A stretch of 63,990 nt of DNA, filler included. It is 7 parts of 7 records of this genome, joined end to end, with 100 filler letters (N's around TTAATTAATTAA, not from the genome) between each part and the next. Parts side by side here need not be neighbours in the genome. Positions count along the whole stretch, not along the records: positions 10,623 to 23,316 come from SRR20825010_1431; 6 more parts are not named here. The stretch is one strand, 5' to 3'. Numbering within the stretch: the stretch's first letter is position 1; each line of letters starts with the position of its first letter. Made by a program: the position numbers and the translations under genes. This document shows positions 2,725-34,128 of the stretch, piece after piece. Under the pieces are notes generated by a model, which saw only the letters and a list, made by a program, of their open reading frames with translations, was not told the DNA's origin and did not search any database.

Positions 2725-2767
2725 TCTTGCATTAAACAAATTTATACTCGCTTCTCAAGTCTAAAAC

Positions 2768-3460: not shown

Positions 3461-3466
3461 CAGAAC

Positions 3467-6478: not shown

Positions 6479-6566
6479 GTGTATCTAATTTGATTTATAT
6501 AGGACACATGGAATCTCACATGGTTATTCATCATTCCTACATTTGACATAATCATCATGTTCGATT

Positions 6567-7922: not shown

Positions 7923-7973
7923 TGGATTTGGTTTTGATGGGGGCACAATTGGGAATTTACCAAAAACTTGGTT

Positions 7974-8735
7974 CTATTCGTTCAGATTCCAATCATAATC
8001 CATAAATGAAACCTTAGCATCTGACTTGATTTTGACTTTGCTGTACTTATTCAAAAAGTCAATCAAACTCCCATTTTTAGTGAAATCCCCTTTAAACCAA
8101 GAGAAGATGGAAGAGATTTGAACTGACTCAGGGGAGATTTTATTTCTCGAAGAATTGATAAAACTTTTAGCAACCTTATCCAATTGTGCATCGATTGTTT
8201 TAGCTTCGAACGCTTCATTCAACAAAGGTGGACAGGAAATAGAAGCACAATTGACAGCGAAGTGAATTCGAGGTTCTTCAAATTCCTTTCGCAAAATCGA
8301 ATGCTCGATCTCATCCAAACTGGACTCCTGACCTCCTATTTTGAAAAATTTGTAGTGCCAAACATCTTTGATCATCGGGATTTTCAATTTTGGCCCCAGA
8401 TCCTTGATGCTTTCCACAGGGTAATTATTGACGATCAATGTTACGGTAAAGGCATTATAGGCATTAATCCAGTAAGCAAGTTGCTCGTCCTTTGACCAAG
8501 TTTTACGATCAGGGGCATTTTCACTGAGGCTCTTCACATACGCTTCTAGCTTCGCCTTCTCTTTGATAAAACCTTTGTAATTCACTTTTCCGTCAGCACT
8601 CACATTTGCTTTGAGCAATTCATTCCAAGTTTTGTGACTCGGCGGAGTGGTTTCAGCCATGCCAGGCACTGAACTTTGACAGCTCAAAAGAATTATGCTG
8701 AAGAAAAGAGCAATATGGATTTTTAGATTTTTCAT
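7974..8735 (-). CDS. DUF547 domain lipoprotein
   Basis: Lipobox LLSC; LAYWINAYNA, LDEIEH, EPRIHFAVNCASISCP, SSIFSWF, YDWNLN motifs. Confidence 0.88.
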   Translation of the reverse strand: MKNLKIHIALFFSIILLSCQSSVPGMAETTPPSHKTWNELLKANVSADGKVNYKGFIKEKAKLEAYVKSLSENAPDRKTWSKDEQLAYWINAYNAFTVTLIVNNYPVESIKDLGPKLKIPMIKDVWHYKFFKIGGQESSLDEIEHSILRKEFEEPRIHFAVNCASISCPPLLNEAFEAKTIDAQLDKVAKSFINSSRNKISPESVQISSIFSWFKGDFTKNGSLIDFLNKYSKVKIKSDAKVSFMDYDWNLNE

Positions 8736-8826
8736 AGGGAATGTGTTTAGGATGATTTACGATCCGATTCAAAATAAGGATGTAGAGAATTGAGAAATGG
8801 TCGGATAGAAGACCAAAAACAGTGAT

Positions 8827-9336
8827 TTAATAAACTTTTTCTCCTTTAGTCAGCCAAATACCCCAAGATTTTGAATAGGTATGCACTTTCTGCGTAGTAG
8901 AATCTCCATGAAAAATTGGTTTTTCCTCGTTTGCCCATTCAATCAACCCACCGTACAAATTATAAACCTCCTTGAATCCCGCATCTTTTAGTTTTTTACC
9001 AATCTCCTGAGATCGTGCTCCTACCGTACAATACACGAGAACGGGTTTATTTTTATCCAGAGAAGCTACATTTTGAAGAGTAAAAGTATCGTATCCCACC
9101 CAAGCGGCATCTTTGAGATGACTTACCTCAAACTCCTCTTTTTCACGTGTATCCAACACTTGATAAGTACTCAACTCACTTATTTGAGCGGGCTTTAAGA
9201 CAGGGAATTTAGAATCGTAAAGCGTGGTGAGTAAGGCTTTATAGGCAATTGATTGAGCCTTAACAGTAGTAGAAAAAATGCAAAGTACGGGAACTAGTAA
9301 AAGCGCAAGTAGGTATTTAGAGAGGTAAGACTTCAT
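8827..9336 (-). CDS. Exported rhodanese-like domain protein
   Basis: Signal peptide; LDTREKEEFEVSHL, YCTVGARS active loop, NLYGGLIEW. Confidence 0.88.
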   Translation of the reverse strand: MKSYLSKYLLALLLVPVLCIFSTTVKAQSIAYKALLTTLYDSKFPVLKPAQISELSTYQVLDTREKEEFEVSHLKDAAWVGYDTFTLQNVASLDKNKPVLVYCTVGARSQEIGKKLKDAGFKEVYNLYGGLIEWANEEKPIFHGDSTTQKVHTYSKSWGIWLTKGEKVY

Positions 9337-9372
9337 ATCGCTTTAACCCAAATACAAGTTGCGATGTTCAAC

Positions 9373-10086
9373 TTAGGCGTAAAAATCTGAAAGCTTCACT
9401 AGCCCTTCTTTATCCAAGATCACGATTTTCTTGCCTTTCAGTTCAATGAGTTTATCTTTTTTGAATTCGGATAACAATCGGATAACAGATTCAGTCGCAG
9501 TTCCGATCAAGCTAGCAATCTCCTCCCTGCTTAGTACCAAGTCAATCTGCTGATGACCTGCACCATCGAGTCCATAAGAATTAGCAAGTTGGAGAAGCAA
9601 ATACGCCAATCGCTCCCGTATACTCTTTTGCGAAGCATCTACTAACTTCTCTTCCATCACTCCAATCTCATGACTGAGTGCTTTGGTGAGTTTTTTGAAA
9701 AATGGCCCACTGCTAATTATGGTTTTAAGAAATGACTCTTTCGGAATAAAGCAGATTTTGGCATCCTCTATCACCATTGCAGAATTAGTGTAATTCTCCT
9801 CACCAAGTAAGGCCGTATAGCCCAATAACCCACCTTTTGACTCCAAATGAATAATTTGTTCCTTACCATTTGAGGCAGTTTTGAACACCTTTATAACACC
9901 AGAATTCACACAAAAAACTCCAAGAGGCTTGGCTCCTTCATAATAAAGCATTTGCCCTTTTCGGTGCGAAATCATGTTCTTGTTGTCAGAAATATTGCAT
10001 GCCTGCTCTTCTGTAAGTTCAGAAAACATAGAAAATTTCCGACTGGTACAAAGATCACAAGGATGGATGGAAGAGGTTTTAGACAT
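9373..10086 (-). CDS. Crp/Fnr family transcriptional regulator with N-terminal CxxC
   Basis: cNMP-like domain, HTH LSREEIASLIGTATESVIRLLSEF, cysteines in CDLC and ICFIP. Confidence 0.9.
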   Translation of the reverse strand: MSKTSSIHPCDLCTSRKFSMFSELTEEQACNISDNKNMISHRKGQMLYYEGAKPLGVFCVNSGVIKVFKTASNGKEQIIHLESKGGLLGYTALLGEENYTNSAMVIEDAKICFIPKESFLKTIISSGPFFKKLTKALSHEIGVMEEKLVDASQKSIRERLAYLLLQLANSYGLDGAGHQQIDLVLSREEIASLIGTATESVIRLLSEFKKDKLIELKGKKIVILDKEGLVKLSDFYA

Positions 10087-10140
10087 ACTCGAACAAATTA
10101 TTTTGAGGTTGCTAACAAATGTAAATTTACAACACTGGAT

Positions 10141-10522
10141 TTAAAGAGGAGGTTCGGGAAAACTTTTCTCCTGAGTAAACTTCTCCGCAACAGAGTCAAA
10201 GCTTAGACAAATATGCTGTAACCCATTGCTAATTAACAAATAAGGAGTTTTCAATTCCTTATGATACATACATGCTTGCTCTATCGTCTTTTGAGTCAAT
10301 TTTACTTTAGGAGCCTTGCACTCAATAAGTAAATACGGATTCCCATTTTTGTCCCAAACTACCAAATCAGTGCGTTTGAGCAGTTTGTTGTAAACTAACC
10401 CTTTTTCCAATGCCAATAGCCCTTTTGGGAATTTAAGCTTAGTGATCAGGAAGTTGATCCAGTGCTGACGAACCCATTCTTCGGGTGTCAATACGAGTTG
10501 TTTTTTGCGAAGTGAATCAAAT
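10141..10522 (-). CDS. Stand-alone type I restriction enzyme HsdR N-terminal domain protein, 5' truncated at contig end
   Basis: FDSLRKKQLVLTPEEWVRQ, RTDLVV, LIECKAP, ISNG motifs. Confidence 0.8.
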
Positions 10523-10622
10523 NNNNNNNNNNNNNNNNNNNNNNNNNNNNNNNNNNNNNNNNNNNNTTAATTAATTAANNNNNNNNNNNNNNNNNNNNNN
10601 NNNNNNNNNNNNNNNNNNNNNN
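10523..10622. other. Artificial contig spacer
   Basis: 44 N + TTAATTAATTAA + 44 N. Confidence 0.98.
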
Positions 10623-11009
10623 TGTATTTGCTGAAATATTGAAAGCTATATCCTCAATGCAAGCAGCTTTGAAAGTATAGTTACCAGAACTGGCAGTGGC
10701 TCCAAAACGATGAACCGCATTTTCAATACTAAAACAATCACGACCGTCAATCGACACCACAAGTTTATTGGCTGAAATAGTGAATGTAGCTTCAGTGCCA
10801 AGACTAACTGGTGAATCAGGTTCAGCATAAGTAAGTATAGTAACAAAAGTGCCGTGAAGATTCGTTGGTACGGTGGCAGCGGTTTCATCGGTACCTACAG
10901 TGGCCGTACATACTTCCCCTCCACAGTTATCTACTGTTGGCTTGTCATCTTCTCCGCAAGCGGAAAACAAGAACGTTGTAAATGCGAGAATCGCGAATAG
11001 CTTTTTCAT
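10623..11009 (-). CDS. Cys-containing lipoprotein of unknown function, 3' truncated
   Basis: MKKLFAILAFTTFLFSAC lipobox; four further Cys in the visible part. Confidence 0.75.
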
Positions 11010-11030
11010 AGTTGGATGTTTTTTACCTAT

Positions 11031-11102
11031 CAAAATTGAGTCAATTGGAGCTTAAAGAACATACAGTCTATGCGGTGTTTTTCACTCAGTGCCAGTACTG
11101 AT
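11031..11102 (-). promoter_or_regulatory. Regulated promoter 1: palindromic box CTCAGTGCCAGTACTGAT (11085-11102) plus -7-like element (minus strand CAATTTTG, 11031-11038)
   Basis: One of four copies with the same 54-bp offset between the box and the -7-like element. Confidence 0.7.
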
Positions 11103-11128
11103 GTGAAAGAATGAATTGTACTTTTAGT

Positions 11129-14023
11129 TTAGTTTCCATAATGGATAAATGGCGCCCAGTAATTAGCGCCCTTAAATTGATCCCCAAATTCGCCTATAAT
11201 AAACCTGCGTTTCATATCGTCTATGGCATCTGGGTAACTCATGCCTGTCTTATTTACCAGCTCATACATTCCTGCCATAAAATACATGGTAGAAAGGTCG
11301 TTAACAGCCCAAAGCGAGACTGCAGCGCCATTTGCACCTGCTAAGATTAACGATTGGGTTAAGCCCATAACCCCTTCACCTCCATAAATTTTACCCAAGC
11401 CTGTTTCGCAGGCCGAAAGCACTACCAAGTCAGCATTTAGCTTCAATGATGCAATTTCTGAAGTTGTGAGGTAACCATCTTCGTCATCTTTCTCATCCCT
11501 GAAGATACTCATGGCCACCCCAGATAGTTGAGGGATATCGGGAATAGCAAAACCATGAGTTGCCAAGTGTACTACCTTATAATTGGCCAATTCTCCTTCA
11601 TTAGAAAGCTTCTTTATAAAGGCTTCATCCATTTCTAGGCCCGTATATAAATCCGTTCCAGGTACTGTAGAAGCCATGATTTTTACTTCATTGAGTGTAC
11701 CAGGGAGGTAATTCATCTTACCAAAACCTAAGGCGGCATATACTTCTCTCTGTGAAAGCCCCTGAGCGGCATTTGTCAAAGCCAAAGCATTCATTTCTTG
11801 CATTCGTTCGACACTACGAGCGAGGTCAGCCTTCGTTGACATTTCATCATAAATGGCGCCTCCCATTGCTAACATGGGCTTTCTGGAGGAACCGTAGTTG
11901 CGGTCATCTATAATATCTGAGATACTAGCGGATTGGATATATCTAATCCCTTGTTTTTCTATGAGAAATTTACCCTCACCGTCTGTCAGTGCCTCGAATG
12001 GAATAAAATTCAAGAGGCCATCGGGTGAAATAATCAACTTCTTTTTACCTGAAATCAGGTTGGAAATTGGTGCAATTAGAAATTTGTAATAGTGATCCAA
12101 AAACTCTTTTCTGACGGGCGCGTGCTCAGGCTTATCACTCTGTAGTAATTCCCTTACCCACTCCCCCAGGGCCTCGAAGTCTTCCTGATTGAACAAATTA
12201 GCAATATCTTGCTCCACTAATATTCGGTCTCCGGATGTTCTGGCATTGGCCGGAAGCTTAAAGCCAGTCCGTTGCATATCAGCCACACGTTCCGTATCAA
12301 TGTACTTTTGTTTGAGTGCGACAAATTCCTTAAAAAACTCATTGAGTACCGCATAACTTTTGTCCTTAGTCACAACATTAATAGCTACAGCTCCCGGCTC
12401 TGCCAAGGTATAGAAAAGCGCCACTTCATTGTCCTTTAATTTTGATTGAAAGCGTTGCAAAGTGGTTTTCCTTGAATTATTCTTGAGTTTCAAACGGTCT
12501 GTTAACACCCTCGCACGCTGCTTACCAATGGCGTCAAACATGCCTGCTCCATTGCCTGTTCTAGCGTAACTGTAGGTCAGGAATTCATAAGCACTTAGCT
12601 GAGATTGCAGAAACGTTATGCGGTTTTGTCCATCCAACTCAACCATTTGCTCCTCACTGATTGCAATTGCTCTTTCAAAGTAGGGGACGGCCTTCGCATA
12701 TTCCTCCGAAAAGAAATTCATAGTACCCATATTGTTCAGGTTGATAATGGCATCTTGATTGCGACCACTTGCTATTAAACTATTTATCAGCGTTTCATAA
12801 GTGGATATTGCCTTACCCCTGTCTCCCGATTGCCAATAGGTTATGGCTAAGTTTCCCTGAACAGATTCAGCCAGCCAAGTAAATCCGTTTTGAGTAGCCA
12901 TATTATTGGCCTTTTCTAAGTTTGTTTTAGCCGAAGCCCTGCTGGCAGGATCTGTGGAAACTAGGTATGAGGTACCAATGCTATTGTAGGCTTGAGCCAT
13001 TATGTAGTTATCCTGTTGTCTCTGACCCAGCTGAAGAATTTCATTAGCTACAGCCCTTTGTTCAGTACTTTTACCTTGAGCATTTAAGACATTCGCTTTT
13101 CTGAGTAACAGCTCGCCATGGAGATAAGTACCAATAAGATTTTGGCTTGATGGCAAAGTCCTGTCAATTACCTCTTGCGCTCTATCGTAATTTCCTATGT
13201 AATAGAGGTAATCTGAATAATAATAGCCCACAGTTGTCTTCACATAACTGCCTATAGAGGCATCATTAACAATATTCAAATAAGAATTATTAAGCAACTG
13301 CGCTCCTTCCTCCACCAAACCATTGTAGTAAAGTGTGGCACCAATCTCTGCCTGCCATTTATGGATAGTGTTATTAGGTTTTGGGCTGATTTTACTTAAT
13401 CCATCAAGGGCCTTGTTAAATGAGTTTAACGACTGTGTATTATCACCATTTCTGGCATGCTCAGAGGCTTTCAAATAGGATTGAAGTGCATTTGTAAAAT
13501 TATCATTATCCACTTTCACACTTGGCAGCCAAGCCTTTAATTCACTGAAAGCATCCGTCTTTTTACCAAACTGAATGAAGGTATCCCAAGCATCATTAAT
13601 GTCCTTAATATCTTCTTCTAGTTCCTGATACTTAAGAGCGCTCTGAACTAATGCTTTGGCTTCATCCGTCTTCCCTTCCAAAACCTTCAGGTTGGCACGC
13701 ATAAATATAGGGTATAGCGTAGTTTCTCCCATGTCCACAATTTGTTCAAGGTAGCTCTTGGCCTTTCCTAAGTCATCTTTCAACATATAGTTGAATGCGT
13801 ACATGGCATACACATTTTCGATATAACTATTCATTTGCATGACCTCATCGAGCAACTGAATAGACTGACTCGTTTGGTTCTGTTTTACCAGTTCATAAGC
13901 CTTGAGGTATTTGGCATTGAGATCATCCTGCGCTTTTAGCGGAGGTGAAAAAATTACGCATAGCAAGCATGCCAGAATTGCAATTCTTCTTTGAAGTCGT
14001 GACGAAATAATGAACATATTCAT
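11129..14023 (-). CDS. Exported TPR-repeat plus CHAT-domain (caspase-like clan CD) protease
   Basis: Signal peptide ending PLKA|QD; TPR helices (AQAYNSIG, INLNNMG); PDGLLNFIPFEAL, HLATHG, LSACETG, SLWAVND, YWAPF motifs, with intact His/Cys dyad. Confidence 0.9.
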   Translation of the reverse strand: MNMFIISSRLQRRIAILACLLCVIFSPPLKAQDDLNAKYLKAYELVKQNQTSQSIQLLDEVMQMNSYIENVYAMYAFNYMLKDDLGKAKSYLEQIVDMGETTLYPIFMRANLKVLEGKTDEAKALVQSALKYQELEEDIKDINDAWDTFIQFGKKTDAFSELKAWLPSVKVDNDNFTNALQSYLKASEHARNGDNTQSLNSFNKALDGLSKISPKPNNTIHKWQAEIGATLYYNGLVEEGAQLLNNSYLNIVNDASIGSYVKTTVGYYYSDYLYYIGNYDRAQEVIDRTLPSSQNLIGTYLHGELLLRKANVLNAQGKSTEQRAVANEILQLGQRQQDNYIMAQAYNSIGTSYLVSTDPASRASAKTNLEKANNMATQNGFTWLAESVQGNLAITYWQSGDRGKAISTYETLINSLIASGRNQDAIINLNNMGTMNFFSEEYAKAVPYFERAIAISEEQMVELDGQNRITFLQSQLSAYEFLTYSYARTGNGAGMFDAIGKQRARVLTDRLKLKNNSRKTTLQRFQSKLKDNEVALFYTLAEPGAVAINVVTKDKSYAVLNEFFKEFVALKQKYIDTERVADMQRTGFKLPANARTSGDRILVEQDIANLFNQEDFEALGEWVRELLQSDKPEHAPVRKEFLDHYYKFLIAPISNLISGKKKLIISPDGLLNFIPFEALTDGEGKFLIEKQGIRYIQSASISDIIDDRNYGSSRKPMLAMGGAIYDEMSTKADLARSVERMQEMNALALTNAAQGLSQREVYAALGFGKMNYLPGTLNEVKIMASTVPGTDLYTGLEMDEAFIKKLSNEGELANYKVVHLATHGFAIPDIPQLSGVAMSIFRDEKDDEDGYLTTSEIASLKLNADLVVLSACETGLGKIYGGEGVMGLTQSLILAGANGAAVSLWAVNDLSTMYFMAGMYELVNKTGMSYPDAIDDMKRRFIIGEFGDQFKGANYWAPFIHYGN

Positions 14024-14060
14024 GGCCTGATGCTTTTATGGTTAAACCGAAATCGGTGTT

Positions 14061-14735
14061 TTATTTACCTCCCTTACCTTTTGAAAGCCCTAGGTCTTTA
14101 TACATCTTATCTAATGCGCTATTTGCAATATCACTTACTTTTTTATCGTCATATATATTGATTTCATCCACCATTACTGTTGTTCTTGGGCTCGTTTTAA
14201 TGGCTATAAGGTCACCAAAGGTTTTAAGCTTAGCGGAATAAATTTGTTCACCATTAATCTCAAAGCTGAATTTCTTACCCTCCTTAATGACCAATAAATC
14301 ATTGTATTCGAATTTCTTAACCACACCTTTTGTCTTTCCACTAGAAAGCTTTTTCATTTTTTTGTCATACTTATAAACTCCATAAAACCCGGTGTTATCA
14401 TATAGGAGTGAATAGTAGCTTTTACCATCCTCACTCATTCCAAAACGGATTCCTATAAACCCTTCAGCATCTCCTTTTTCAAGAATCATCTTAGCGGATA
14501 ATCCATAATCTTCTTTATTTACATCGGGGTTAATAAAGGTTTGAACTGCAACATCTGAAGTGCTTTCGATTCTTAAATGACCATTCTGAATGGCGAGAGA
14601 ATAGCCCTCATGATTACCCAAAAAAGGCCAGCCGTTTTTATTGTCATCAAACTTCTCGTTGAAGAAATTGATTTGAGCAGAAAGGCCAGTAGTGACCAAC
14701 AATGCCATTAAGAGTACTAAAATTCTGTTTTTCAT
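14061..14735 (-). CDS. Exported hypothetical protein, probable lectin-like (ConA/DUF1080-like) beta-sandwich
   Basis: Signal peptide LSA|Q; FNEKFDDNKNGW and beta-strand pattern (YNDLLVIKEGKKFSFEING). Fold is inferred. Confidence 0.6.
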   Translation of the reverse strand: MKNRILVLLMALLVTTGLSAQINFFNEKFDDNKNGWPFLGNHEGYSLAIQNGHLRIESTSDVAVQTFINPDVNKEDYGLSAKMILEKGDAEGFIGIRFGMSEDGKSYYSLLYDNTGFYGVYKYDKKMKKLSSGKTKGVVKKFEYNDLLVIKEGKKFSFEINGEQIYSAKLKTFGDLIAIKTSPRTTVMVDEINIYDDKKVSDIANSALDKMYKDLGLSKGKGGK

Positions 14736-14757
14736 AGTTCCTATTTAAAGTGTTTTT

Positions 14758-16326
14758 CTAATTGCTGGTGCGAATTATATTGCCAAAGGCATTGATCACC
14801 AACTTGTATGAATCAAGGGAATTTCCGTTTTGCTGACTCGCACTGATCACCGTAGTGCTTCCCTCCTTTTTTACATTAAATTCAATTTTATTGGTAACAG
14901 CTCCTCTGCTTTTTTGCGTTACTCCAATATTCTCTGTCCGTCTATGCGTTCCGTCTGTTCCAAAAACCGATACTTTGAACCAAGAAACCTCAGACCCGTT
15001 TACGGCTCCTCTCCACATGCTAAGTAGTATTAGATCACCATTTTGGGTTTGGCCTACCTCCCCAATAGCGCTCAGGTTTCCATTATTTCCCGAAATTTCA
15101 GAAGCACCATCTAAACCATCGATTGCTCTGCCTTGAAGCGAATTATAATCCAGTGCCCATGGCAGCCTAAGTAAATTATAGCTATTCAATAAATTACTAT
15201 TGTAAACTGGACGTACAGGAGCTGAAGGCTTTGAACTAGGCTCAACGGCACCTTTTGGAGGGAATAGATTTAAATCATCAGTAACTTCATTGCTCCTTAA
15301 ATCCACCAATAGCATATTGGAATCCCTTATCTGTTTGGTAGGAACTGCCGCAATGTTCACTTCCGAAATCAGTTCATACCTGTATTCCTCCCCTTTCATC
15401 AATCCATTAATGGATGAAAAAGACCAAGAAGCGTCCAGGATAAATTGATCTCCTTCCCTCTTTAATCGACTGACAACACGGTTTACAGGGTCGACAGAAT
15501 AGAGTAAACCACCAATGAATTTATAGTCCATTTTAGGTTTGTTTTCATCACCTAAAAAAATAAGTTCATTATTTTCTGCGTCATAGTAATAGTCATTTCT
15601 TTCTGGAAAAGTAGGTCTGAATCTACTAATCACAGCTCTTGGTCCATCTATTGTAGACAGCTCCGTCCTGCTATAATTAAAACTTGGCAACTCAGGTACT
15701 GCGTTCATTTTCTTTGCATTCAGTAAATCATAAATCTCAAAACCATCTTCATATTTCCATAAAAAATGGTAATCAGGACTGAACTGATGAGCCTTTTCCA
15801 AATATTCACCTAAGTCCACTTTCTCACTCATAATTTGTGTGATTCTTCTAGAACTCGGGTCATAAATATATAGGCCAGATTGTGATTTTATTGCTGGGTA
15901 TTTTTTCTCAATTTTCACCTTGGTGGCAAGGATTCTTCCGTCATCATAAACCCCAATAATAAAGTGGTCTTCACCCAAGTTTTTTACGCTACTTGACTCT
16001 ACCTGAACAACCGCACTCACAAAATGATAAGCATTATTCCCCTTCAGTATTCTACTAAAAGCCATGTAAGCGAATGCCCCAGAGAAACCGCCATAAATGC
16101 TGTTTTTGGCAACGAAAGTGGAGTTTCGGGTATAGGAATCATAGACAACTATATTCTGATGTTGCCCATCAGATGTGCTTAAAGGCCCGTCCGCCAGGAT
16201 TAAGTACCTGCCATCTGTAGTCGTTTTAAAGTGTCGTATCCATCCTTCGAAGGCAATTTTCTGGGCAGAAATTTGAAAAATAGTTAGCCCAAAGAGCAAG
16301 AATGTAATGAGATAGCGGTTTTTCAT
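14758..16326 (-). CDS. Exported hypothetical protein, beta-rich (possible beta-propeller plus C-terminal domain); paralog of 17415..19049
   Basis: Signal peptide ISA|Q; shares collinear motifs with the 17415..19049 product. Confidence 0.75.
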   Translation of the reverse strand: MKNRYLITFLLFGLTIFQISAQKIAFEGWIRHFKTTTDGRYLILADGPLSTSDGQHQNIVVYDSYTRNSTFVAKNSIYGGFSGAFAYMAFSRILKGNNAYHFVSAVVQVESSSVKNLGEDHFIIGVYDDGRILATKVKIEKKYPAIKSQSGLYIYDPSSRRITQIMSEKVDLGEYLEKAHQFSPDYHFLWKYEDGFEIYDLLNAKKMNAVPELPSFNYSRTELSTIDGPRAVISRFRPTFPERNDYYYDAENNELIFLGDENKPKMDYKFIGGLLYSVDPVNRVVSRLKREGDQFILDASWSFSSINGLMKGEEYRYELISEVNIAAVPTKQIRDSNMLLVDLRSNEVTDDLNLFPPKGAVEPSSKPSAPVRPVYNSNLLNSYNLLRLPWALDYNSLQGRAIDGLDGASEISGNNGNLSAIGEVGQTQNGDLILLSMWRGAVNGSEVSWFKVSVFGTDGTHRRTENIGVTQKSRGAVTNKIEFNVKKEGSTTVISASQQNGNSLDSYKLVINAFGNIIRTSN

Positions 16327-16345
16327 GATTTGGAATCTTATGAAG

Positions 16346-16417
16346 TAAAACTAGGGCAAAAGAAAAGGTCAGAGCATGCCTAAAAACCCTTGTTTTCATA
16401 TCCGTACTAGCGCGTAC
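16346..16417 (-). promoter_or_regulatory. Regulated promoter 2: box ATCCGTACTAGCGCGTAC (16400-16417) plus -7-like element (minus strand TAGTTTTA, 16346-16353)
   Basis: Same 54-bp offset; the second half of the box is more degenerate. Confidence 0.62.
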
Positions 16418-16583
16418 TAGCATATAGTTTAAACCACCAAAAACTACTTGCAATACCTCATTCAACAATTGAATCGAAGCGCTGATTTTATCATCTTGTT
16501 TAAGCTTACCCTGTGCAAAACCTGAGCTAGAAACAGAAGTATAAACGTCAGTACAATTGCCTGAAACTGCACTAGTAGATTCT

Positions 16584-17399
16584 TTATTTCCTCATCCTAT
16601 CCATGTAAAAAAAATCGGGTAATATGATGTGTCCTGCTATATCGAATTCCTTCACAATGTTAAAGACAATATTTCGGTTGGCTTTTGGGAAAAGTGCTGT
16701 ATCTCTATTATAAAAAGTGATTTGAATTTTGTCCAAAAACACCTTGAACCGTTTAAGATTCTCCTCATATTCTTCCGTCCCAGCTCTCTTAATTTCAAGT
16801 AACGTGTACTTCATAAAAGCAATAGCTAGCTCATTCTGCTGCACGCTACCATAGTAGTATACCAACCAGTTGTTGATGTTGTTTGAATCAATAAAACTCA
16901 AATGCATGTGTTGCAGAGAAGTGATGGAAACACCGTTGTCAGAAAAATCAGAGATTGCATGTTTAGCATCTTCTTCTGCATTAAATGTAACTGTCACAGG
17001 ATAGTCTTTACTTCCTATTTGAGTTGAATAAACAGTCAGGGTCTTATCATTATTAATCGCATCCAGAAGTGCCTTCTCTTCCATAGAAATTTCACCATCA
17101 GCGTTGATAATATTAAGAATGACTAAAGCTGTATTCGCCACAACCCTTCCATCTTTTGATCGCATCGACTTACAGAAATTGTAATACCTGACCTCGTCCA
17201 CCGTAATGGTATCTGGCAGGTTTCCTTCCAAAGTCAGTTTGATCACTTTTGATGGAAATTGCTGCTTGGCGTAGTCACTTTCCAACATTTGTTTCACCTG
17301 CTCATAAACCTCCTGTGTTTTTCCAGAGAATTGTGCCTGAGATCTAATGCTCAAACATAAAAGAGACAGACTGAGTAGCGCTAAAGTTATTGACTTCAT
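16584..17399 (-). CDS. Exported hypothetical protein
   Basis: Signal peptide SQA|Q; mostly helical; INADGEISMEEKALL segment resembles TerB/EF-hand-type loops. Confidence 0.7.
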   Translation of the reverse strand: MKSITLALLSLSLLCLSIRSQAQFSGKTQEVYEQVKQMLESDYAKQQFPSKVIKLTLEGNLPDTITVDEVRYYNFCKSMRSKDGRVVANTALVILNIINADGEISMEEKALLDAINNDKTLTVYSTQIGSKDYPVTVTFNAEEDAKHAISDFSDNGVSITSLQHMHLSFIDSNNINNWLVYYYGSVQQNELAIAFMKYTLLEIKRAGTEEYEENLKRFKVFLDKIQITFYNRDTALFPKANRNIVFNIVKEFDIAGHIILPDFFYMDRMRK

Positions 17400-17414
17400 C
17401 GTTTATAAATTTCG

Positions 17415-19049
17415 TTAATGAATATTCCCACTTGGCTCTATGGTAATTTTAAAAGGGGTCTTCCTTTGTTCAAATTGTTGCTCTCCAATGATAGTGAAGG
17501 TATTGTAAGCCTCACGCTGAATTTTAAAATTGACGGCTGCATAGGTTCTTCCTGCACTGCTTTGCTGTACACTGCCTATCTCTTTACTAGCTTTGTAATT
17601 TCCTTCTTTATCGAAAACTGAAACATAATATGTAGAAACTACTGAACCGTTGGATGCCTTATATCGAGTAAGTGACAGTAATATTGGAGCGTCAGAAGCA
17701 CCAGCCGCTACACCAATCATTCCAATTGCAAAGACCTCACCTCCTCCAATACTCGAAGCACCCGAAAGGCCTGTCACCTGCCTGCCAGAAGGGTTGTTTA
17801 GGGTATAAGGTATAGATATCTCATCATAGCTATTCAATAGGTCGCTTTTATAAAGTGTTTTGGTAGAATAACTTGAGGATGCCTTCTTGGGCTTGTCTTT
17901 CTGATAGAGTGCAAAATTGTCCACAACTGCATTATTTTCAAGGTCATAGATTATGACATCAGCCACTTCACCTGTTCTTTTGGTGGGCGTGGCCACGAGG
18001 TACTTTTCAGAGGCAATGGCAAATCTATATTCTTCTCCATTCAGCATGGCTTCAGGGATTTTCGGATACCATACTTTATCACTCACCGGTAACCCCGAAC
18101 TTGTATTGAACCTCATAATCACTCCAACCTCATTATCGAACTGATAGATTATGTTATCCTGCATTTGATAGTGTACCGGAGTCTTATGTGTGATATGATT
18201 TGACATGGCCAGTGTTTTATCTGAATCTGCACGAATAAAATAGTCTTGCCATTGGCCCTTGTTCTTTCTACTAGTTACGCGCATCATAGCCGATTTTCCA
18301 TCGACCATAAGTACAAGTCTTTCAGGTGAGCTAGTAGTATCATCTGCGAAGCGAATATTAAACGCTTGTTTACTCCCATCTCGGAAATCATAATAATTCA
18401 AAAATTCGGTGTAGTATTTACTATAAAGTTCTCCACCCCAAGAAGAAAGATTATCTGGACTCATTAAATGAAAAAACTTCTGCTCAGCGTCTATTCCATG
18501 ATCTTTACTATAGAGTTCCTTTTCTAACAGCTCTTTTTTTCCTACTACTTCTCTTTTCCCTTTAGTCTGTGGATCGTATATGTATAATGTTGAAAAACTA
18601 TCAACACTTGCACCGCCTTTGTAGGTCTTCGCGTTTGAAGCCAAGACTTTTCCGTCATCATATACCGCCAATCCAAAATTTTCATTCTTCCATGATTGTT
18701 TTTCATCCGTAGCCATATTTAAGAGCGTGACTTCATAAGGCCCTCTTTTCCTATCCACATAGCTCAGCTCAGTTTCTATAAAATAGTTAGCATTGGGAGA
18801 GAACCCACCATATGGCCCAGTTCGAGAAAAGAAGTTGATTGACTTTGATTCGAAATCGTAGGTCAAATAATCACGCCAACTTGACCCCAGTGCTGTGTTG
18901 CTCCATTTTTTTGATTTGATAATGAGCTTTTTTCCGTCCAATGTAGTTTTAACAGAACGCACATCTTTCTCGAAGTCAACCTTAGCCCTATCCTGAGCAA
19001 GTGATAGGTGGGACAGTATGATCAGTAGGAAAAAAACAAAGTATCTCAT
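17415..19049 (-). CDS. Exported hypothetical protein; paralog of 14758..16326
   Basis: Start placed at MRYFVFF (19049) because the upstream ATG at 19070 abuts the -7-like element. Signal peptide SLA|Q. Confidence 0.75.
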   Translation of the reverse strand: MRYFVFFLLIILSHLSLAQDRAKVDFEKDVRSVKTTLDGKKLIIKSKKWSNTALGSSWRDYLTYDFESKSINFFSRTGPYGGFSPNANYFIETELSYVDRKRGPYEVTLLNMATDEKQSWKNENFGLAVYDDGKVLASNAKTYKGGASVDSFSTLYIYDPQTKGKREVVGKKELLEKELYSKDHGIDAEQKFFHLMSPDNLSSWGGELYSKYYTEFLNYYDFRDGSKQAFNIRFADDTTSSPERLVLMVDGKSAMMRVTSRKNKGQWQDYFIRADSDKTLAMSNHITHKTPVHYQMQDNIIYQFDNEVGVIMRFNTSSGLPVSDKVWYPKIPEAMLNGEEYRFAIASEKYLVATPTKRTGEVADVIIYDLENNAVVDNFALYQKDKPKKASSSYSTKTLYKSDLLNSYDEISIPYTLNNPSGRQVTGLSGASSIGGGEVFAIGMIGVAAGASDAPILLSLTRYKASNGSVVSTYYVSVFDKEGNYKASKEIGSVQQSSAGRTYAAVNFKIQREAYNTFTIIGEQQFEQRKTPFKITIEPSGNIH

Positions 19050-19069
19050 AGAACTAGATTTTTGTTCCA

Positions 19070-19141
19070 TAAAGTTGCACCTACTAAATTGAGTAAAACA
19101 TGGTGGATGGCTAGGGTTTTTATATCCGTGTTGGCACTGAT
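19070..19141 (-). promoter_or_regulatory. Regulated promoter 3: box ATCCGTGTTGGCACTGAT (19124-19141) plus -7-like element (minus strand CAACTTTA, 19070-19077)
   Basis: Same 54-bp offset. Confidence 0.7.
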
Positions 19142-19174
19142 GTATATTTCAGTAACCCAGTTTAAATTGCTTTA

Positions 19175-22129
19175 TTAATCATTCCCGCCTTTTTTCTTTG
19201 CATCAATTTCTTTTATGATTGCGCTCAACTCCGAATCTGAGAGTATCTCGGGGAAAAGAAGGTCTAAATATTCAGCTTTCTCAAAACCTTTGAATCTATA
19301 CGCTTTCTTGTTTTCAACACCAGTGACATAAATAAGATCTCCTTGATATATATCAGAGGTGAAGGTTGTACTCTTATCAAGAGTTCCCTCTTTAGCAAAA
19401 GAGAATCTACCATCTTTTAACTTAGTTAAAACTACTTTTTCATCGTCTATTGGTAGCTTTTTAATGTCTCCCAAAAAGTAACCTGCCCTCTGAGGATATT
19501 CAGCATAATAAGTACTGCCACTAGAAATGTCATACACCAACTCACTCCATGTTTCGGACTCTGGCAGGTTGTTTACATAAATGCGTCTAACATCCAGTTG
19601 TGATTCTCCATTTATAAAGAATGCTAGGTTTTTTTCTTCCCATTTCAGCGCCTTGTGGTCGTTTGGTCCGATGGCAATTTTAGTAGCCCCTTCAATATCA
19701 CCCTGTGTAAAGTAGCCCTCAAGTTGATAGGTAACATTGTTTAGGGTGTCATGGACTAGCGCATCAGAGTCTCCTAGATTGCCAAAAAATTGCAAATAGT
19801 CATTAATCGGATTCCCCTTTTCATCCCATAAATAATAAGAACCCGCTACTTTTTTAAAGGTATTTGGCTTGGCTCTTACTGCTTCTACATTTTCTTTTGG
19901 CTTTGAGGGGTCAACATTCAACTTGCTCGCCAGACTGGCAACATCCATATCTAACACCATTTCTGCAGGAAGGAATTCACCAAGCTTTATGTCTTTAAAC
20001 CCTTTAAAACGATAGGCTTTCACTGCATTTGAAGCAGTTGTATAGAAATGGACTAAGTCATCCCCATCCATTAGGCTATAATCATAGTTACCTAAAGTTT
20101 CGCCCTTTGTGAAAATAACCCATTGTTCCTTTTCCAATTTCATAATATAGGTATGTGCAGTATTCCACGGTAACGCCTTCATTGGTCCAACTCTAGCCGT
20201 TCCTTTTAAATCGTATTGCATACCGTAACTGGTATTGAAAATTGTGTCATAAACGACAGCCCCATATTTCACCTGATCAGCATAGAGCTTACGGGATCCC
20301 AAATTACTATTGACCAATCGCGTACCGTTAACATAGTAGGTGATGTTTTTATTCTCGTTATACAAATAGTAGATTGATTCTTCTCCTTTAGACAAAACCG
20401 TTACAGGCTGATTTGGAAACTCTTTATCATCAGGTTTCTCATAAATACCATCCATTCTTAAATACTCGCCTGTCAGAGAAAAATAAGTTACAAGTTGATC
20501 ATCAGGAGCTCGGGTAGAAGTTTCTGCAAGATTAGTTACTATAGTGCCGTCAGAAGTTTTTAATCGATACTTGCTATTTGCGAGGTTATCGTAAACAAAA
20601 TGATTAAAATTAATGGAAGGATAACGCTCTTTTAGTCGCTTTAAAGGCTCCGTTAATTTTTCGGCAACATGAATATCACCAGGCTTACCATTATCGTATT
20701 TAGACCTAAAATCGGTTAATAGATACCACCCGTCCTTGCTGGTACTTGCGCTAATCAATCTACTGCCATCAGGCATTTCTAATTGTTTTCTAACGCCAAG
20801 CCCATAGCCCTTTGAAATAAAAGCGTAAGTGCTGTCGGTCATTTTTCCCCAAAACAAATTGTTATCTAGAAATTCAACCTTATGAAGCCCAAATTCTTCA
20901 TCTGGATCTTTAATGGCTAAAAATGATTTATCTTGACTGTCTAAATAGTTGACGCTATTGGCTCCTACATCATATTTGCTTTTGCCTTTGGTTATAGTAA
21001 GTCCCTTCTGGAAAATAGTGAGGTAAGTTGACCCCGAAGCCCAAAAGAAATCTTCGGTGTTATGTGACACAATTATACCTTCATGCCAGGTGGTTTGATT
21101 CGTATTGTTATTATAGCCCTTTAACACAATTGTGGTGCTTGAAGAAGCCACATAAGTGATGTAATCGTATGTTCCTGGTATAACAATTGGGCTAGTTGCC
21201 GACACTATTTTACCATTAATTGCTACTTGAAATTGAGAGTATGACTGCCTTATATACTGTGCCCTATCATCCTCGGCTGTCATCTCTGTTCTACCTGTAG
21301 TTTGACCATCGGCATAGCTGATTTTTCGTAACACCAAACTGGATCTGCCAAACTGCTGATCTAACACTTCACTTTTTATCCAACTTCCTTGTGCATCACT
21401 TTCAAAATAATGCTTCACTGTACCTTGCTGATTGTTCCCTAAGTTCTTTGTGGTTTCTTGAACTTTCAACTTTGTGGTTTTATCTGTTAAAGTAACAATA
21501 GAAAATGTTCCATTAGCGGTTGCTCTGGTTTCAGAAGTTATTTCATTTGTACCTTCCTCTTTATACTCAAATGTGGAGATCACCCTAGCCACCTCTTCTC
21601 CGGTTAATTTCTGGGAAGTTTTAGTAATTCTATTTTGTGCATCTCTTTCGTTGTAGACTATTCCTTTAACCTCTCCATCCTCTGCCACCTCTATTTCTAT
21701 AAGTTGATCCTTGTCATTATAAGTATAGTTTTTAACGGTAGTAATTAAGCCTTGCACTTGCGTAGTTGTAGCCAGCAAGCCTTTTTTATAGTCGTACTTG
21801 GTGTTGCGCAAATTTAACCCTGTAGCACCATTGGCAATTTTCTCAACCTCCAAAACTCCCTTTTTATCCAACTCGTAAGTGTACGAGTACTTATTACCGG
21901 TTAAGAGCTCGTCTCGGCTAATGTTTATTAAGTTGCCGTTTTTGTCAAATCTTTCAATCTCAACTACAGATTTTTGAAGTCCCTTTTCCGCCACAAACTC
22001 ATAGTAGGTATTTATAATACTGGTGACTTTACCTTTTACTCCTTTAGATGCTAAAGTGGTTGTTTCAAATAATTGTGCCTTTGCGGAAAAGGCAAAAACC
22101 ATAAATAAGAATAGGGCGATTTTTTTCAT
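19175..22129 (-). CDS. Large exported protein: YD-like N-terminal beta domain plus internal tandem repeats of about 238 aa
   Basis: Signal peptide AKA|Q; VKGKVTSI, FDKNGNL, YTYNDKDQL, RKISY; KAYRFKGF occurs twice, 238 codons apart. Confidence 0.8.
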   Translation of the reverse strand: MKKIALFLFMVFAFSAKAQLFETTTLASKGVKGKVTSIINTYYEFVAEKGLQKSVVEIERFDKNGNLINISRDELLTGNKYSYTYELDKKGVLEVEKIANGATGLNLRNTKYDYKKGLLATTTQVQGLITTVKNYTYNDKDQLIEIEVAEDGEVKGIVYNERDAQNRITKTSQKLTGEEVARVISTFEYKEEGTNEITSETRATANGTFSIVTLTDKTTKLKVQETTKNLGNNQQGTVKHYFESDAQGSWIKSEVLDQQFGRSSLVLRKISYADGQTTGRTEMTAEDDRAQYIRQSYSQFQVAINGKIVSATSPIVIPGTYDYITYVASSSTTIVLKGYNNNTNQTTWHEGIIVSHNTEDFFWASGSTYLTIFQKGLTITKGKSKYDVGANSVNYLDSQDKSFLAIKDPDEEFGLHKVEFLDNNLFWGKMTDSTYAFISKGYGLGVRKQLEMPDGSRLISASTSKDGWYLLTDFRSKYDNGKPGDIHVAEKLTEPLKRLKERYPSINFNHFVYDNLANSKYRLKTSDGTIVTNLAETSTRAPDDQLVTYFSLTGEYLRMDGIYEKPDDKEFPNQPVTVLSKGEESIYYLYNENKNITYYVNGTRLVNSNLGSRKLYADQVKYGAVVYDTIFNTSYGMQYDLKGTARVGPMKALPWNTAHTYIMKLEKEQWVIFTKGETLGNYDYSLMDGDDLVHFYTTASNAVKAYRFKGFKDIKLGEFLPAEMVLDMDVASLASKLNVDPSKPKENVEAVRAKPNTFKKVAGSYYLWDEKGNPINDYLQFFGNLGDSDALVHDTLNNVTYQLEGYFTQGDIEGATKIAIGPNDHKALKWEEKNLAFFINGESQLDVRRIYVNNLPESETWSELVYDISSGSTYYAEYPQRAGYFLGDIKKLPIDDEKVVLTKLKDGRFSFAKEGTLDKSTTFTSDIYQGDLIYVTGVENKKAYRFKGFEKAEYLDLLFPEILSDSELSAIIKEIDAKKKGGND

Positions 22130-22186
22130 GAGTACAGCATTTAGTGGTCAATCAAGGCTATTGAAAATCAAGCGTTTGGATTAATG

Positions 22187-22258
22187 TAAAATTAAAACCA
22201 CTCTGCGTTTGAAGGAATACGCTAGGCACGGGGTATTTACATCCGTGCTGGTACGGAT
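22187..22258 (-). promoter_or_regulatory. Regulated promoter 4: near-perfect palindrome ATCCGTGCTGGTACGGAT (22241-22258) plus -7-like element (minus strand TAATTTTA, 22187-22194)
   Basis: Best copy of the box, 40 bp downstream of the response regulator stop; same 54-bp offset. Confidence 0.75.
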
Positions 22259-22297
22259 GGGGAGCATATAAAGATAATTAATGGGATATGAGGGGGA

Positions 22298-22915
22298 TTA
22301 GATCAAATTGTTCGCGTAAGCAAATTTGATAAGCCCTACCAAAGAACTGGTTTTTGTTTTGCGAAAAATATTCTTTCGGTGGGTTTCTACGGTGCGCTCA
22401 CTGATAAAAAGCTCTTCAGCAATTTGCTTGTTGGAATATTCTTGAGAAATCAGTTTTAGAATTTCACGTTCACGCGAAGTCAGTAATTTACCTTCGTCTG
22501 GTTCGTAAAGGCTTTTTACCAGCATGGCATTAATTTCCGTAGACATGTACATCTTCCCCCCTCTTACCGCATAAATGGCTTCGATCAATTCTGCTTTTGT
22601 GTCCTTCTTCAACACATAACCATTTACGCCTTCTTTAAGAATTTCCTTCACCAAATGGGCTTCATCGTGCATACTCAAAATGATGAATTTCATATCTGGA
22701 AAAAGACGTTTAGATTTTTGCACTAGGCTCAAACCGTCATCATCGCCTAGGTTGTAATCGGTAATCACCAAGTCGGGTTTGTGCTTGTCGATGGAGCGGA
22801 TGGCCTCAGGTACAGAGCCCACGGCATCTACCACAGAAAGCATTTCATCTTCTTCTATCAGCTTTATAAGGCCATCTAATAATATGGCATGATCATCGAC
22901 AAGGAGGATTTTCAT
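22298..22915 (-). CDS. NarL/LuxR-family DNA-binding response regulator
   Basis: MKILLVDDH, DLVITD, ILSMHD, GYVLK; LTSREREILKLI...IAEELFISERTVETHRKNI HTH. Confidence 0.93.
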   Translation of the reverse strand: MKILLVDDHAILLDGLIKLIEEDEMLSVVDAVGSVPEAIRSIDKHKPDLVITDYNLGDDDGLSLVQKSKRLFPDMKFIILSMHDEAHLVKEILKEGVNGYVLKKDTKAELIEAIYAVRGGKMYMSTEINAMLVKSLYEPDEGKLLTSREREILKLISQEYSNKQIAEELFISERTVETHRKNIFRKTKTSSLVGLIKFAYANNLI

Positions 22916-23003
22916 CGTTTCTGCTATTTGTTCCCTGCCCACAAAATTGAACAACCATTTCATAGGGGCAAGGTATTCTCTCTAATCTATTAAAAATATC
23001 CGA

Positions 23004-23316
23004 CTAAGCGGTGAATTCACTTTCAGTACTGGTGGGTATTTTTATGATTGATGCATTGGCCAAATTAACGGTCATCATACTGCCGCATCTGTCTGGGTGG
23101 GTATCTAAATCAAACTCTCCTTTGATCAGATTCAATCGAGTTTGGATGTTCTTCCAGCCATTCCCTTTGCCACTATAAAAGAGTTCAGCATCAAAGCCCT
23201 TTCCATCATCTTCCACGGTTAAAGTCAGCTCCTCTTCGTCTCTGGTCAGCTGAATGGTAATATAGGTGGCTTCTGCATACTTCATTACATTGTTCACCCA
23301 TTCTTGGCAAATTCTG
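23004..23316 (-). CDS. Sensor histidine kinase C-terminal HATPase domain (NarX/UhpB type), 5' truncated
   Basis: RICQEWVNNVMKYA, VEDDGKGFD, GNGWKNIQTR. Confidence 0.85.
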
Positions 23317-23416
23317 NNNNNNNNNNNNNNNNNNNNNNNNNNNNNNNNNNNNNNNNNNNNTTAATTAATTAANNNNNNNNNNNNNNNNNNNNNNNNNNNN
23401 NNNNNNNNNNNNNNNN
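23317..23416. other. Artificial contig spacer
   Basis: 44 N + TTAATTAATTAA + 44 N. Confidence 0.98.
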
Positions 23417-30288: not shown

Positions 30289-30388
30289 NNNNNNNNNNNN
30301 NNNNNNNNNNNNNNNNNNNNNNNNNNNNNNNNTTAATTAATTAANNNNNNNNNNNNNNNNNNNNNNNNNNNNNNNNNNNNNNNNNNNN
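30289..30388. other. Artificial contig spacer
   Basis: 44 N + TTAATTAATTAA + 44 N. Confidence 0.98.
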
Positions 30389-30652
30389 AATCACCACACC
30401 CATGCCGTGATCGATAAAGAAACGACGGCCAATTTTGGCACCGGGGTGAATTTCAATACCAGTAAGCCAGCGCGAAAACGTGGATAGCAGCCGCGCAAGT
30501 TGCTTGAAATTACGCGTCCATAACCCATGCGCCAACCGATGAAAAAGCACCGCGTGCAAACCGGGATAGTTGAGCAACACTTCCAGCGTATTGCGGGCCG
30601 CCGGGTCCCGGTGAAAGACCGACCGGATGTCCTCGCGCACTTGATCAAACAT
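30389..30652 (-). CDS. cysE: Serine O-acetyltransferase, 3' truncated
   Basis: RDPAARN...YPGLHA...[25 protein letters not shown]. Confidence 0.95.
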
Positions 30653-30723
30653 AACTACCTCAACTTCGAAGCCTTGGGCCTGGGCCCGTTAGGATGACGC
30701 CAACAACCGTTTGTTACGGCGCA

Positions 30724-31506: not shown

Positions 31507-31665
31507 GGGAGGCCTCTCATTAAAAAAGGCGCTAATCTTAACACGGCGGCTGCCCTGATCGCGCGGGCTCTGCTACAATCCGCGCCCCGGAACGGGAACC
31601 CCGCGTTTCCCCGCCCCGCGCTCTTTAACACCGTTACGCCACACGTCATATTGAGGATAGATGCC

Positions 31666-32484: not shown

Positions 32485-32508
32485 ACACCCGCCCCGCCTT
32501 GCTTTGCG

Positions 32509-34127: not shown

Positions 34128-34128
34128 G

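Follow-up and report, generated by a model that had tools for sequence, protein, structure and literature searches.

We describe a cluster of genes for exported proteins, among them a caspase-like TPR-CHAT protease, that fills one whole contig (12.7 kb; 10623..23316) of a 63,990-base stretch of DNA, hereafter the window. The contig is a fragment of a chromosomal locus that is confined, as far as found, to the genus Roseivirga. Several described systems come close to it. First, craspase is the type III-E CRISPR protease whose TPR-CHAT protein, Csx29, is encoded together with its substrate, Csx30. The Roseivirga locus is like it in that a TPR-CHAT protease would work with a dedicated protein encoded alongside. 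However, craspase is cytoplasmic, RNA-guided, and bound to Cas7-11, whereas the Roseivirga locus has no cas genes, no PADLOC match, and no sequence match to a solved chain. We rejected this identity because none of the 8 proteins tested matched any PADLOC model and because all of the protease's neighbors are exported orphan proteins.

Second, type IX secretion (the T9SS) offers an analogy only: both there and here, an extracytoplasmic cysteine peptidase (in the T9SS, PorU, which belongs to a cysteine peptidase clan) is found with exported proteins that have variable N-termini and a seven-strand C-terminal beta domain. However, no cargo protein of our locus matches the T9SS tail family Por_Secre_tail (TIGR04183; NCBIfam, E ≤ 0.01), which as a control matched 17 proteins elsewhere in the Roseivirga genome G002. 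In a profile comparison with 12 of the TIGR04183 proteins of G002 (hhalign), the tail domain of our locus gave a probability of 1%, and it is about twice as long. So, the cargo was rejected as T9SS cargo with a type A tail.

Third, FimS of Porphyromonas (NF053520) has the same layout as the kinases of our locus (a signal peptide or anchor, an extracytoplasmic TPR region, one transmembrane segment, and a kinase core), and in both systems genes for exported proteins appear to be controlled. However, our kinase scores 65 bits against a family cutoff of 600, so it is not a member, and the content of the regulon is unrelated.

Finally, the sections of PMC11506125 that we draw on describe the DdvA/DdvS pair of Myxococcus xanthus, in which a transmembrane anti-sigma factor carries a periplasmic TPR-CHAT. 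According to those sections, DdvA shares with our protease an extracytoplasmic TPR-CHAT, a canonical His-Cys dyad, and a tie to an envelope signal-transduction circuit. In contrast, DdvA is a dimer anchored in the membrane; it is fused to a cytoplasmic zinc anti-sigma domain, its active site is incomplete, and it controls an extracytoplasmic function (ECF) sigma factor (same sections of PMC11506125), whereas the Roseivirga protease is a predicted soluble cargo protein of a two-component system, cleaved at its signal peptide and accompanied by tail-domain partners. We rejected a DdvA-type identity because the N-terminus of the protease is a cleavable signal peptide, whose A↓Q junction is conserved, and because the protein has no other hydrophobic segment and no sigma gene nearby. 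(In 21.6 kb there is no sigma or anti-sigma gene, and searches of the contig and of the related locus L001 found no sigma-factor gene; weak matches to sigma region 4 arise only from the regulator's helix-turn-helix.)

Pfam, NCBIfam, PADLOC, PDB-sequence, and literature searches thus bear out the original prediction that no described system matches. For exported or periplasmic CHAT proteins in Bacteroidota or Roseivirga, our literature search (supplementary files lay outside it) returned DdvA only and no paper on this locus. Nor did we find a paper that gives a substrate, partner, or trigger for the exported TPR-CHATs of ~950 residues that are very common in Bacteroidota. The circuit, a two-component regulon, is of an ordinary type; its cargo consists of orphan proteins and includes an undescribed protease-partner module.

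A tail domain encoded next to an exported TPR-CHAT protease

The CHAT domain of the protease (PF12770, residues 645-964) scores 175.5 bits against a cutoff of 24, covers positions 7-289 of the 289 in the profile, and reaches the last residue of the protein. All 50 aligned homologs have His823 (ATHG) and Cys872 (SACET). We assign them as the putative catalytic dyad, which would be intact, from the position of the motifs and from the account of DdvA in the sections of PMC11506125 cited above. A hydrophobicity scan found no segment besides the signal peptide, i.e., no transmembrane anchor, and the protein is predicted to be periplasmic. Relatives are abundant: among 8000 candidates scored, 4713 reached E ≤ 0.001, and a signal-like N-terminus is present in 95 of the best 120. 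Orthologs with 65-66% identity are among the proteins assigned by NCBI to the species Roseivirga echinicomitans and R. pacifica, both of which are culturable.

The original prediction noted two paralogous proteins in the cluster, and the products of g2 and g4 (Table 1) are indeed paralogs (28% identity, E = 4e-50). In the AlphaFold2 model of g2 (predicted local distance difference test, pLDDT, of 84.9), a 7-bladed propeller (residues 30-390) is followed by a linker (395-403, pLDDT < 50) and a seven-strand domain (405-551). This C-terminal tail domain (CTD), the last ~140 residues of g2 and g4, is also found alone or behind other N-termini in an exhaustive search. It is a separable domain that has no Pfam or NCBIfam match and is previously undescribed. 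The CTD profile matches the g4 ortholog of L001 (98% identical) with E = 1e-59. The g2 family is tiny, with 18 proteins among 5.8 billion clustered and 17 representatives among 1.84 billion (exhaustive HMMER search).

The CTD and the protease were linked by two independent routes. In the first, we searched for the CHAT protein in 121 genomes of the family and found four relatives outside the genus, of which two lay at contig ends and two were examined. In genome G204, the gene for a 380-aa protein, which consists of a g5-like domain (31% identity) and a CTD (E = 1e-32), stops 7 nt short of the CHAT gene. G182 encodes two CTD proteins ahead of the CHAT gene, one of 479 aa (E = 3e-22) and one of 474 aa (E = 5e-23). 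In the second, the CTD profile (A5) gave hits at 8 places, which lie in 6 of the 401 genomes sampled from the order, and in the four of these 6 that are not Roseivirga, the CTD gene ends 3-12 nt before a gene for a TPR-CHAT of 951-972 aa with a signal peptide. Altogether, every CTD gene examined (15 genes in 11 genomes) lies in a gene string directly upstream of a CHAT gene, and those genomes have at most some dozens of CHAT candidates each. The N-terminal domain varies between genomes (a propeller, a g5-like jelly roll as in the fusions to the CTD in G204 and G303, or others), and the CTD and its CHAT neighbor are constant. The CHAT unit is thus a two-part module of tail-domain protein and TPR-CHAT that also exists outside the regulon and the genus, and a direct functional pairing of the two is likely.

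Instead of being substrates, the tail-domain proteins could be adaptors or gates of the protease: their variable N-terminal domains would bind glycans or proteins, either foreign ones or those of the envelope, and pass them on to the TPR-CHAT for degradation. Among the best structural neighbors of the g2 propeller are propellers that gate substrates in S9 peptidases and in tricorn-type proteases, but WD40 proteins tie with them (Z of 11-13.7; Foldseek, VIA). The propeller matches are generic, and Atlas searches with g2 gave weak leads only (≤0.87). The jelly roll of g5 is a fold type that binds carbohydrates, though this too is a lead. The original prediction had called g5 lectin-like, and in Atlas it does lead to the jelly rolls of DUF1080 / 3-keto-disaccharide-hydrolase-like proteins, with a feature score of 0.97, 177 shared features, and 10 of the 10 best family-bearing hits in one clan, which is a lead and not an alignment. 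No Pfam family matched g5 at E ≤ 0.01, DUF1080 (PF06439) included. Near relatives of the protease (38-47% identity) carry a C-terminally fused WD40 propeller, but it has no detectable relation to g2, and no target of the proposed adaptors is known. We consider the adaptor role rather unlikely.

Those nearest CHAT relatives from outside the genus (P0063-P0067; 1269-1293 aa) have a signal peptide and precomputed matches to beta-propeller Pfam families. In P0064, which we scanned, the WD40 beta-propeller is fused behind the CHAT domain (residues ~980-1170). This fusion is a second, independent pairing of this type of protease with a propeller.

An operator shared by the transcription units

The original prediction described seven co-oriented cargo genes behind a kinase and a NarL-type regulator, grouped by short gaps (15-37 bp) into four units that all begin with the same operator. 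Our gene calls agree, with all nine genes of the contig on the minus strand. The intergenic gaps are either short (15, 22, and 37 nt) or long (168, 104, 257, and 95 nt), which gives four units. The long gaps share an 18-bp palindrome with the consensus aTCCGTGCYAGYACGGAt (TCCGTGCYAGYACGGA). With at most 1 mismatch, the pattern TCMGTRYYRRYACKGA has 3 sites in the 63,990 bases (at 11086, 19125, and 22242), all of them upstream of units, against 0.09 expected. The fourth copy, before g4, has 2 mismatches; the orthologous sites before g4 in the related loci L004 and L005 have 1. The equivalent of operator 1 stands upstream of g1 in related loci, and the palindrome is present in all 17 of them. Genome-wide (strict pattern, ≤1 mismatch), it lies within the locus at 10 of 11 sites (4 of 5 in G002, 2 of 2 in G003, and 4 of 4 in G004), and the reversed pattern, as a control, has no sites in these three genomes.

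Could the motif and the gene order be chance or an artefact of assembly, with no regulon behind them? The window does combine contigs of several organisms, and the contig itself is short. However, none of 100 shuffles reached 3 sites, the motif is locus-specific genome-wide and recurs in all 17 related loci from independent assemblies, and the contig is collinear with L001 at 91-96% identity. We give this explanation almost no credence.

Downstream of the palindromes (54 sites with ≤2 mismatches in the window and the 17 loci), we found an AAAmmCC block at 4-12 nt and a GTATGTT block at ~22 nt. The latter may be the −7 element of Bacteroidota, whose consensus, TAnnTTTG, it matches in part only. 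If so, then the center of the palindrome is near −42, which would be the position of a class II activator of the LuxR/NarL kind. A scan for sigma-70 promoters and terminators, which was not designed for Bacteroidota, found no excess of either (28 promoter-like sites against 33.9 expected and 9 terminator-like sites against 9.2). Among sequencing runs, none from RNA was listed as containing this DNA.

The regulator itself has the receiver and the GerE/LuxR-type helix-turn-helix of the NarL/FixJ type: Response_reg scores 80.7 bits over positions 1-110 of 111, GerE scores 73.4 bits, and the sequence shows an acidic pair and the Asp in LVITDYNL. The contig retains only the last 103 residues of the kinase (HATPase_c), which are 94% identical to a 663-aa kinase of L001 and 77% identical to its 762-aa paralog; HisKA_3 and HATPase_c are both present in the former. 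Full-length relatives have a signal peptide or anchor, an extracytoplasmic TPR region of 360-450 aa, one transmembrane segment, HisKA_3, and HATPase_c.

Given the operator in all 17 loci and its near-exclusive location there, it is very likely that, as originally predicted, these genes for exported proteins make up a regulon that a dedicated two-component system controls. The regulon is longer than the contig: past the lipoprotein, the loci of relatives also encode a barrel-like protein, one more exported protein, and three small membrane proteins, and operators stand before some of these genes as well. (L004 has two more of them, each before a unit downstream of the lipoprotein.) The locus is also a clear case of confinement, in that the binding site of its two-component system would be almost restricted to one strain-variable gene island.

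In five loci of a more distant clade (Table 1), the 3' end of the kinase gene contains a half-changed form of the operator, TACCCACYAGYACGGA, ~75 nt before the regulator start. This site suggests that the regulator gene may be autoregulated in those loci. The window has no such site before its regulator gene.

Variation of the locus within Roseivirga

The locus occupies one chromosomal site in 17 genomes, between an aminotransferase gene (Aminotran_3 in L001) upstream and a gene whose product begins MNIRPRRNRKS, which we take to be hemB, downstream. The constant parts are one or two kinases, the regulator (77-99% identical across loci), and g1 (37-74%), with regulator and g1 adjacent in 17 of 17 loci. 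Further downstream, small membrane proteins are usual (p131 is in 12 of 17 loci). The remaining cargo is variable: the lipoprotein is present in 9 of the 17 loci, a barrel-like 286-aa protein in 5, a 311-aa exported protein in 5, g3 in 2, a stand-alone g5 in 2, and the CHAT gene in 5. All 5 loci with CHAT also have members of the g2/g4 family, and none of the 12 without CHAT do. Within the closest clade (96-99% identity of the regulator), the block is in G002, G004, and G270, and not in G251, G252, or G255. As both regulator clades hold loci with and without the block, at least two events are implied. So, homologs of the cluster are not scattered; they co-occur across loci. The protease is not the center of the regulon: the kinase-regulator-g1 core is in 17 of the 36 genomes of the genus, and the CHAT block is in 5 of those 17.

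Regulator orthologs (E ≤ 1e-70) are found in 20 of the 36 genus genomes: the 17 with g1, two more, and one with three stop codons. In this last genome (G267:C30:13267-13920), the regulator ortholog is 73% identical and there is no detectable g1, as if the locus were decaying. After the regulator gene and before g1, the distant clade has two extra small genes that the window's clade lacks (L010:5400-5837 and L010:5961-6536; L012-L017 have equivalents). One encodes a 145-aa membrane protein (weak match to DUF3784, 9e-5), and the other, which stops 4 nt short of g1, encodes an exported protein of ~190 aa.

The constant cargo protein is g1. It has 14 homologs, and all of those that carry a name are from Roseivirga. 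In wider samples it is in 2 of 151 order-sample and 2 of 101 family-sample genomes, and in both cases these are G002 and G045, which are among the 36. In the AlphaFold2 model (pLDDT 84.5), residues 34-275 form a long meander sheet. The original description of this N-terminus as YD-like was fair as to the fold. However, porin-like sheets match about equally: Z is 11.8 for Wzi and 10.7 for a Bacteroides "porin-like" protein (15% identity), against 8-10.4 for Rhs and teneurin, and although teneurin and Rhs rank first in Foldseek, the TM-scores are ≤0.14. Also, g1 has no Pfam YD-repeat match, no toxin domain was seen, and self-BLAST found no internal repeats. In fold, g1 thus resembles the Rhs/YD-repeat proteins, and its membership among them is not established.

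This variability raises another possibility, that the locus is a conflict or defense island: a signal-induced armory on the surface or in the periplasm, directed at phages, predators, or competitors, whose cassettes would pass from strain to strain. Cargo does vary between close relatives at one fixed site, g1 diverges fast in comparison with the regulator, and the sheet in g1 is YD/Rhs-like. But PADLOC matches none of the 8 proteins tested, and Pfam, NCBIfam, and profile comparison revealed no toxin domain, immunity pair, type VI secretion signal, or T9SS signal. Furthermore, at ~240 residues the sheet is too short for a closed Rhs shell, and the low TM-scores of g1 speak against the relationship. 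We think that a conflict island is decidedly unlikely.

The shared TPR domains raise a different possibility, namely that the TPR-CHAT is a signaling protease with the TPR sensor domain of the kinase itself as its target, in a feedback as proposed for the self-cleavage of DdvA. The kinase sensor and the protease would expose their TPR domains on the same side of the membrane, and DdvA, in the sections of PMC11506125 used here, provides an earlier case of a periplasmic TPR-CHAT that takes part in signal transduction. Also, the module of G303 adjoins a divergent TPR kinase (32% identity) and regulator (47%). On the other hand, the same kinase/regulator pair lacks a CHAT gene in 12 of 17 loci, the other five of the six out-of-genus modules have no kinase or regulator match alongside, and the TPR regions of kinase and CHAT have no sequence similarity at E ≤ 0.01. 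Such a feedback is very unlikely.

In G303 (locus L034), the tail-domain/TPR-CHAT operon is divergent from the genes for the TPR kinase and NarL regulator. The intergenic region contains an 18-bp palindrome, ATACCTACCGCTAGGTAT (reverse-complement ~5205-5222), that has the same layout as the Roseivirga operator and a different sequence; after it come AATTAC and GGAT blocks similar to the ones in the Roseivirga promoters. In G182, an operator-like site, TACCCACTAGTACGGA (L030:4887), lies 82 nt upstream of the first gene of the tail-domain/CHAT operon. It has three mismatches to the consensus and could be chance, and the nearest regulator homolog (60% identity) is on another contig.

Export of the cargo

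Six cargo proteins were predicted to have signal peptides that are cleaved before Gln and one was predicted to be a lipoprotein. The translations agree: the junctions are AKA↓Q, SLA↓Q, SQA↓Q, ISA↓Q, LSA↓Q, and LKA↓Q, and the lipobox is FSAC↓G. (We assessed the signal peptides by eye and by means of a rough hydrophobicity scan in a 19-residue window, which flags the N-termini of g1, g2, g5, and CHAT.) Cleavage before Gln fits the Q-rule that is described for Bacteroidetes in the portions of PMC5837995 and PMC10653852 that we cite. Among the CHAT orthologs, the A↓Q junction is kept and the h-region varies.

The full-length lipoprotein of L001 has 154 aa and is followed 4 nt later by the gene for the 286-aa barrel-like protein, which ends in KKF. 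After the lipidated Cys there is an acidic run, GEDD, that resembles, without matching, the lipoprotein export signals K-(D/E)2, SDDDD, and SDDFE given in the cited part of PMC5080379. Exposure of the lipoprotein on the surface is possible. The cargo as a whole may serve in extracytoplasmic proteolysis or as a surface module, as the original prediction supposed.

A proposed mechanism

We propose that a signal at the extracytoplasmic TPR domain of one or two kinases would lead to phosphorylation of the NarL/GerE-type regulator. A regulator dimer would then bind the 18-bp palindrome, which would replace the upstream promoter element of every cargo unit. In this way the kinase signal would switch on a strain-variable set of Sec-exported proteins. 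Within this regulon, one to three proteins with variable N-termini and the ~140-residue CTD, followed by a predicted soluble periplasmic TPR-CHAT, make up a mobile submodule. The exported TPR-CHAT would meet the co-induced tail-domain proteins in the periplasm and recognize the CTD, most likely via its TPR region. It would cut them in the disordered linker before the CTD, and the cut would be a processing, activation, or sorting step.

We hold this whole package (the two-component regulon, its variable exported cargo, and the module with CTD recognition and linker cleavage) with moderate confidence. The CTD is probably the protease's handle or a substrate tag. Cleavage at the linker is the most tentative step and is doubtful when taken by itself.

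Several points weigh against the proposal. First, 12 of 17 loci do without the CHAT block, which is therefore dispensable for the core role of the regulon, and as the genomes of the genus are related, the split of 5 against 12 represents few independent events. Second, adjacency is a functional link without a direction, so the CTD proteins could be adaptors, inhibitors, or cargo. Third, the CTD family is very small (the 17 representatives) in comparison with the 4713 relatives of the exported TPR-CHAT, and therefore the partnership may concern one subfamily only. Finally, two of the supporting predictions are incomplete: the hydrophobicity scan misses g3 and g4, whose h-regions are shorter, and the putative −7 element departs from its consensus as noted above.

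A broader version of this proposal is that the CTD and the exported TPR-CHAT are a dedicated protein-processing or sorting pair of Bacteroidota, with a logic like that of the T9SS CTD and PorU or of sortase/exosortase. By analogy with these systems, the protease would remove the CTD of a few clients so that their variable N-terminal domains are activated, released, or anchored, and in Roseivirga this would be under the control of an envelope-sensing two-component system. We consider this version unlikely. The locus offers three handles on the exported TPR-CHATs: a conserved partner domain that is always beside one subfamily of the protease, a defined operator and regulator through which the module should be inducible at will, and orthologs in named Roseivirga species.

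The contig and its features

The features of the contig are given in Table 1. Pfam recognizes three of the nine products (the kinase fragment, the regulator, and the TPR-CHAT). Searches of Pfam, NCBIfam, and PADLOC with g1-g5 and the lipoprotein fragment gave no family match, and phmmer against PDB sequences gave nothing significant for CHAT, g5, g1, or g3.

Table 1. Genes and operators of the contig (window positions), and half-changed operators of five distant-clade loci (locus positions).
Feature	Position	Strand	Remarks
Sensor histidine kinase, C-terminal fragment (103 aa)	23004-23316	-	HATPase_c 4.7e-9 (Pfam); contig edge cuts gene
NarL/GerE-type response regulator	22298-22963	-	Response_reg 1.1e-22 and GerE 1.1e-20 (Pfam)
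g1, exported beta-rich protein, 984 aa	19175-22129	-	
g2, exported, 7-bladed beta-propeller and CTD, 551 aa	17415-19070	-	CTD 17418-17873
g3, exported accessory protein, 271 aa	16584-17399	-	
g4, g2 paralog, propeller and CTD, 522 aa	14758-16326	-	CTD 14761-15213
g5, exported DUF1080 / 3-keto-disaccharide-hydrolase-like (jelly-roll) protein, 224 aa	14061-14735	-	
Exported TPR-CHAT caspase-like protease, 964 aa	11129-14023	-	CHAT 2.1e-51 and TPR families (Pfam)
Small Cys-rich lipoprotein, N-terminal 129 aa	10623-11009	-	Lipobox FSAC; contig edge cuts gene
Putative operator 1, upstream of g1	22242..22257		TCCGTGCTGGTACGGA, 0 mismatches
Putative operator 2, upstream of g2-g3 unit	19125..19140		TCCGTGTTGGCACTGA, 0 mismatches to degenerate pattern
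Putative operator 3, upstream of g4-g5-CHAT unit	16401..16416		TACGCGCTAGTACGGA, 2 mismatches, left arm degenerate
Putative operator 4, upstream of lipoprotein unit	11086..11101		TCAGTGCCAGTACTGA, 0 mismatches to degenerate pattern
Half-changed operator	L010:4651		
Half-changed operator	L011:3991		Reverse-complement orientation
Half-changed operator	L012:3739		
Half-changed operator	L015:4486		
Half-changed operator	L016:4673		

As originally noted, both ends of the cluster are cut by contig edges, and 10623..23316 is exactly one contig between spacers. The window is a chain of contigs joined by 100-nt spacers of the form N44-TTAATTAATTAA-N44 (10523-10622, 23317-23416, 30289-30388, 47808-47907, 56154-56253, and 60396-60495). 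The contigs come from different organisms, with a GC content of 37-43% up to 30288, 55-62% in 30389-56153, and 45-51% beyond. The stretch 32000-38000, sampled from the contig 30389-47807, is 97-99% identical to genome G001, which lacks the contig described here, and the contig 1-10522 is 63-84% alike to G002 in short pieces only. Because the window mixes organisms, the neighboring contigs give no genomic context for 10623..23316.

The locus L001, with which the contig is collinear, comes from a Roseivirga metagenome-assembled genome and differs by an extra tandem paralog of g2 (L001:11734-13371; 67% identical) that is not in the contig (compare 17415-19070). The upper edge of the contig falls within the kinase gene, in a stretch that L001 has twice, once in each of its two kinase paralogs (77-94% identical), and this duplication is the likely cause of the assembly break there.

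The accessory protein g3 has no Pfam or NCBIfam match and, besides its 2 loci among the 17, is known from one metagenome contig. The scan of metagenomes yielded three loci: two have the gene order of L004 and L005, with near-identical match values, and the third is a 3.3-kb fragment with g2, g3, and g4.

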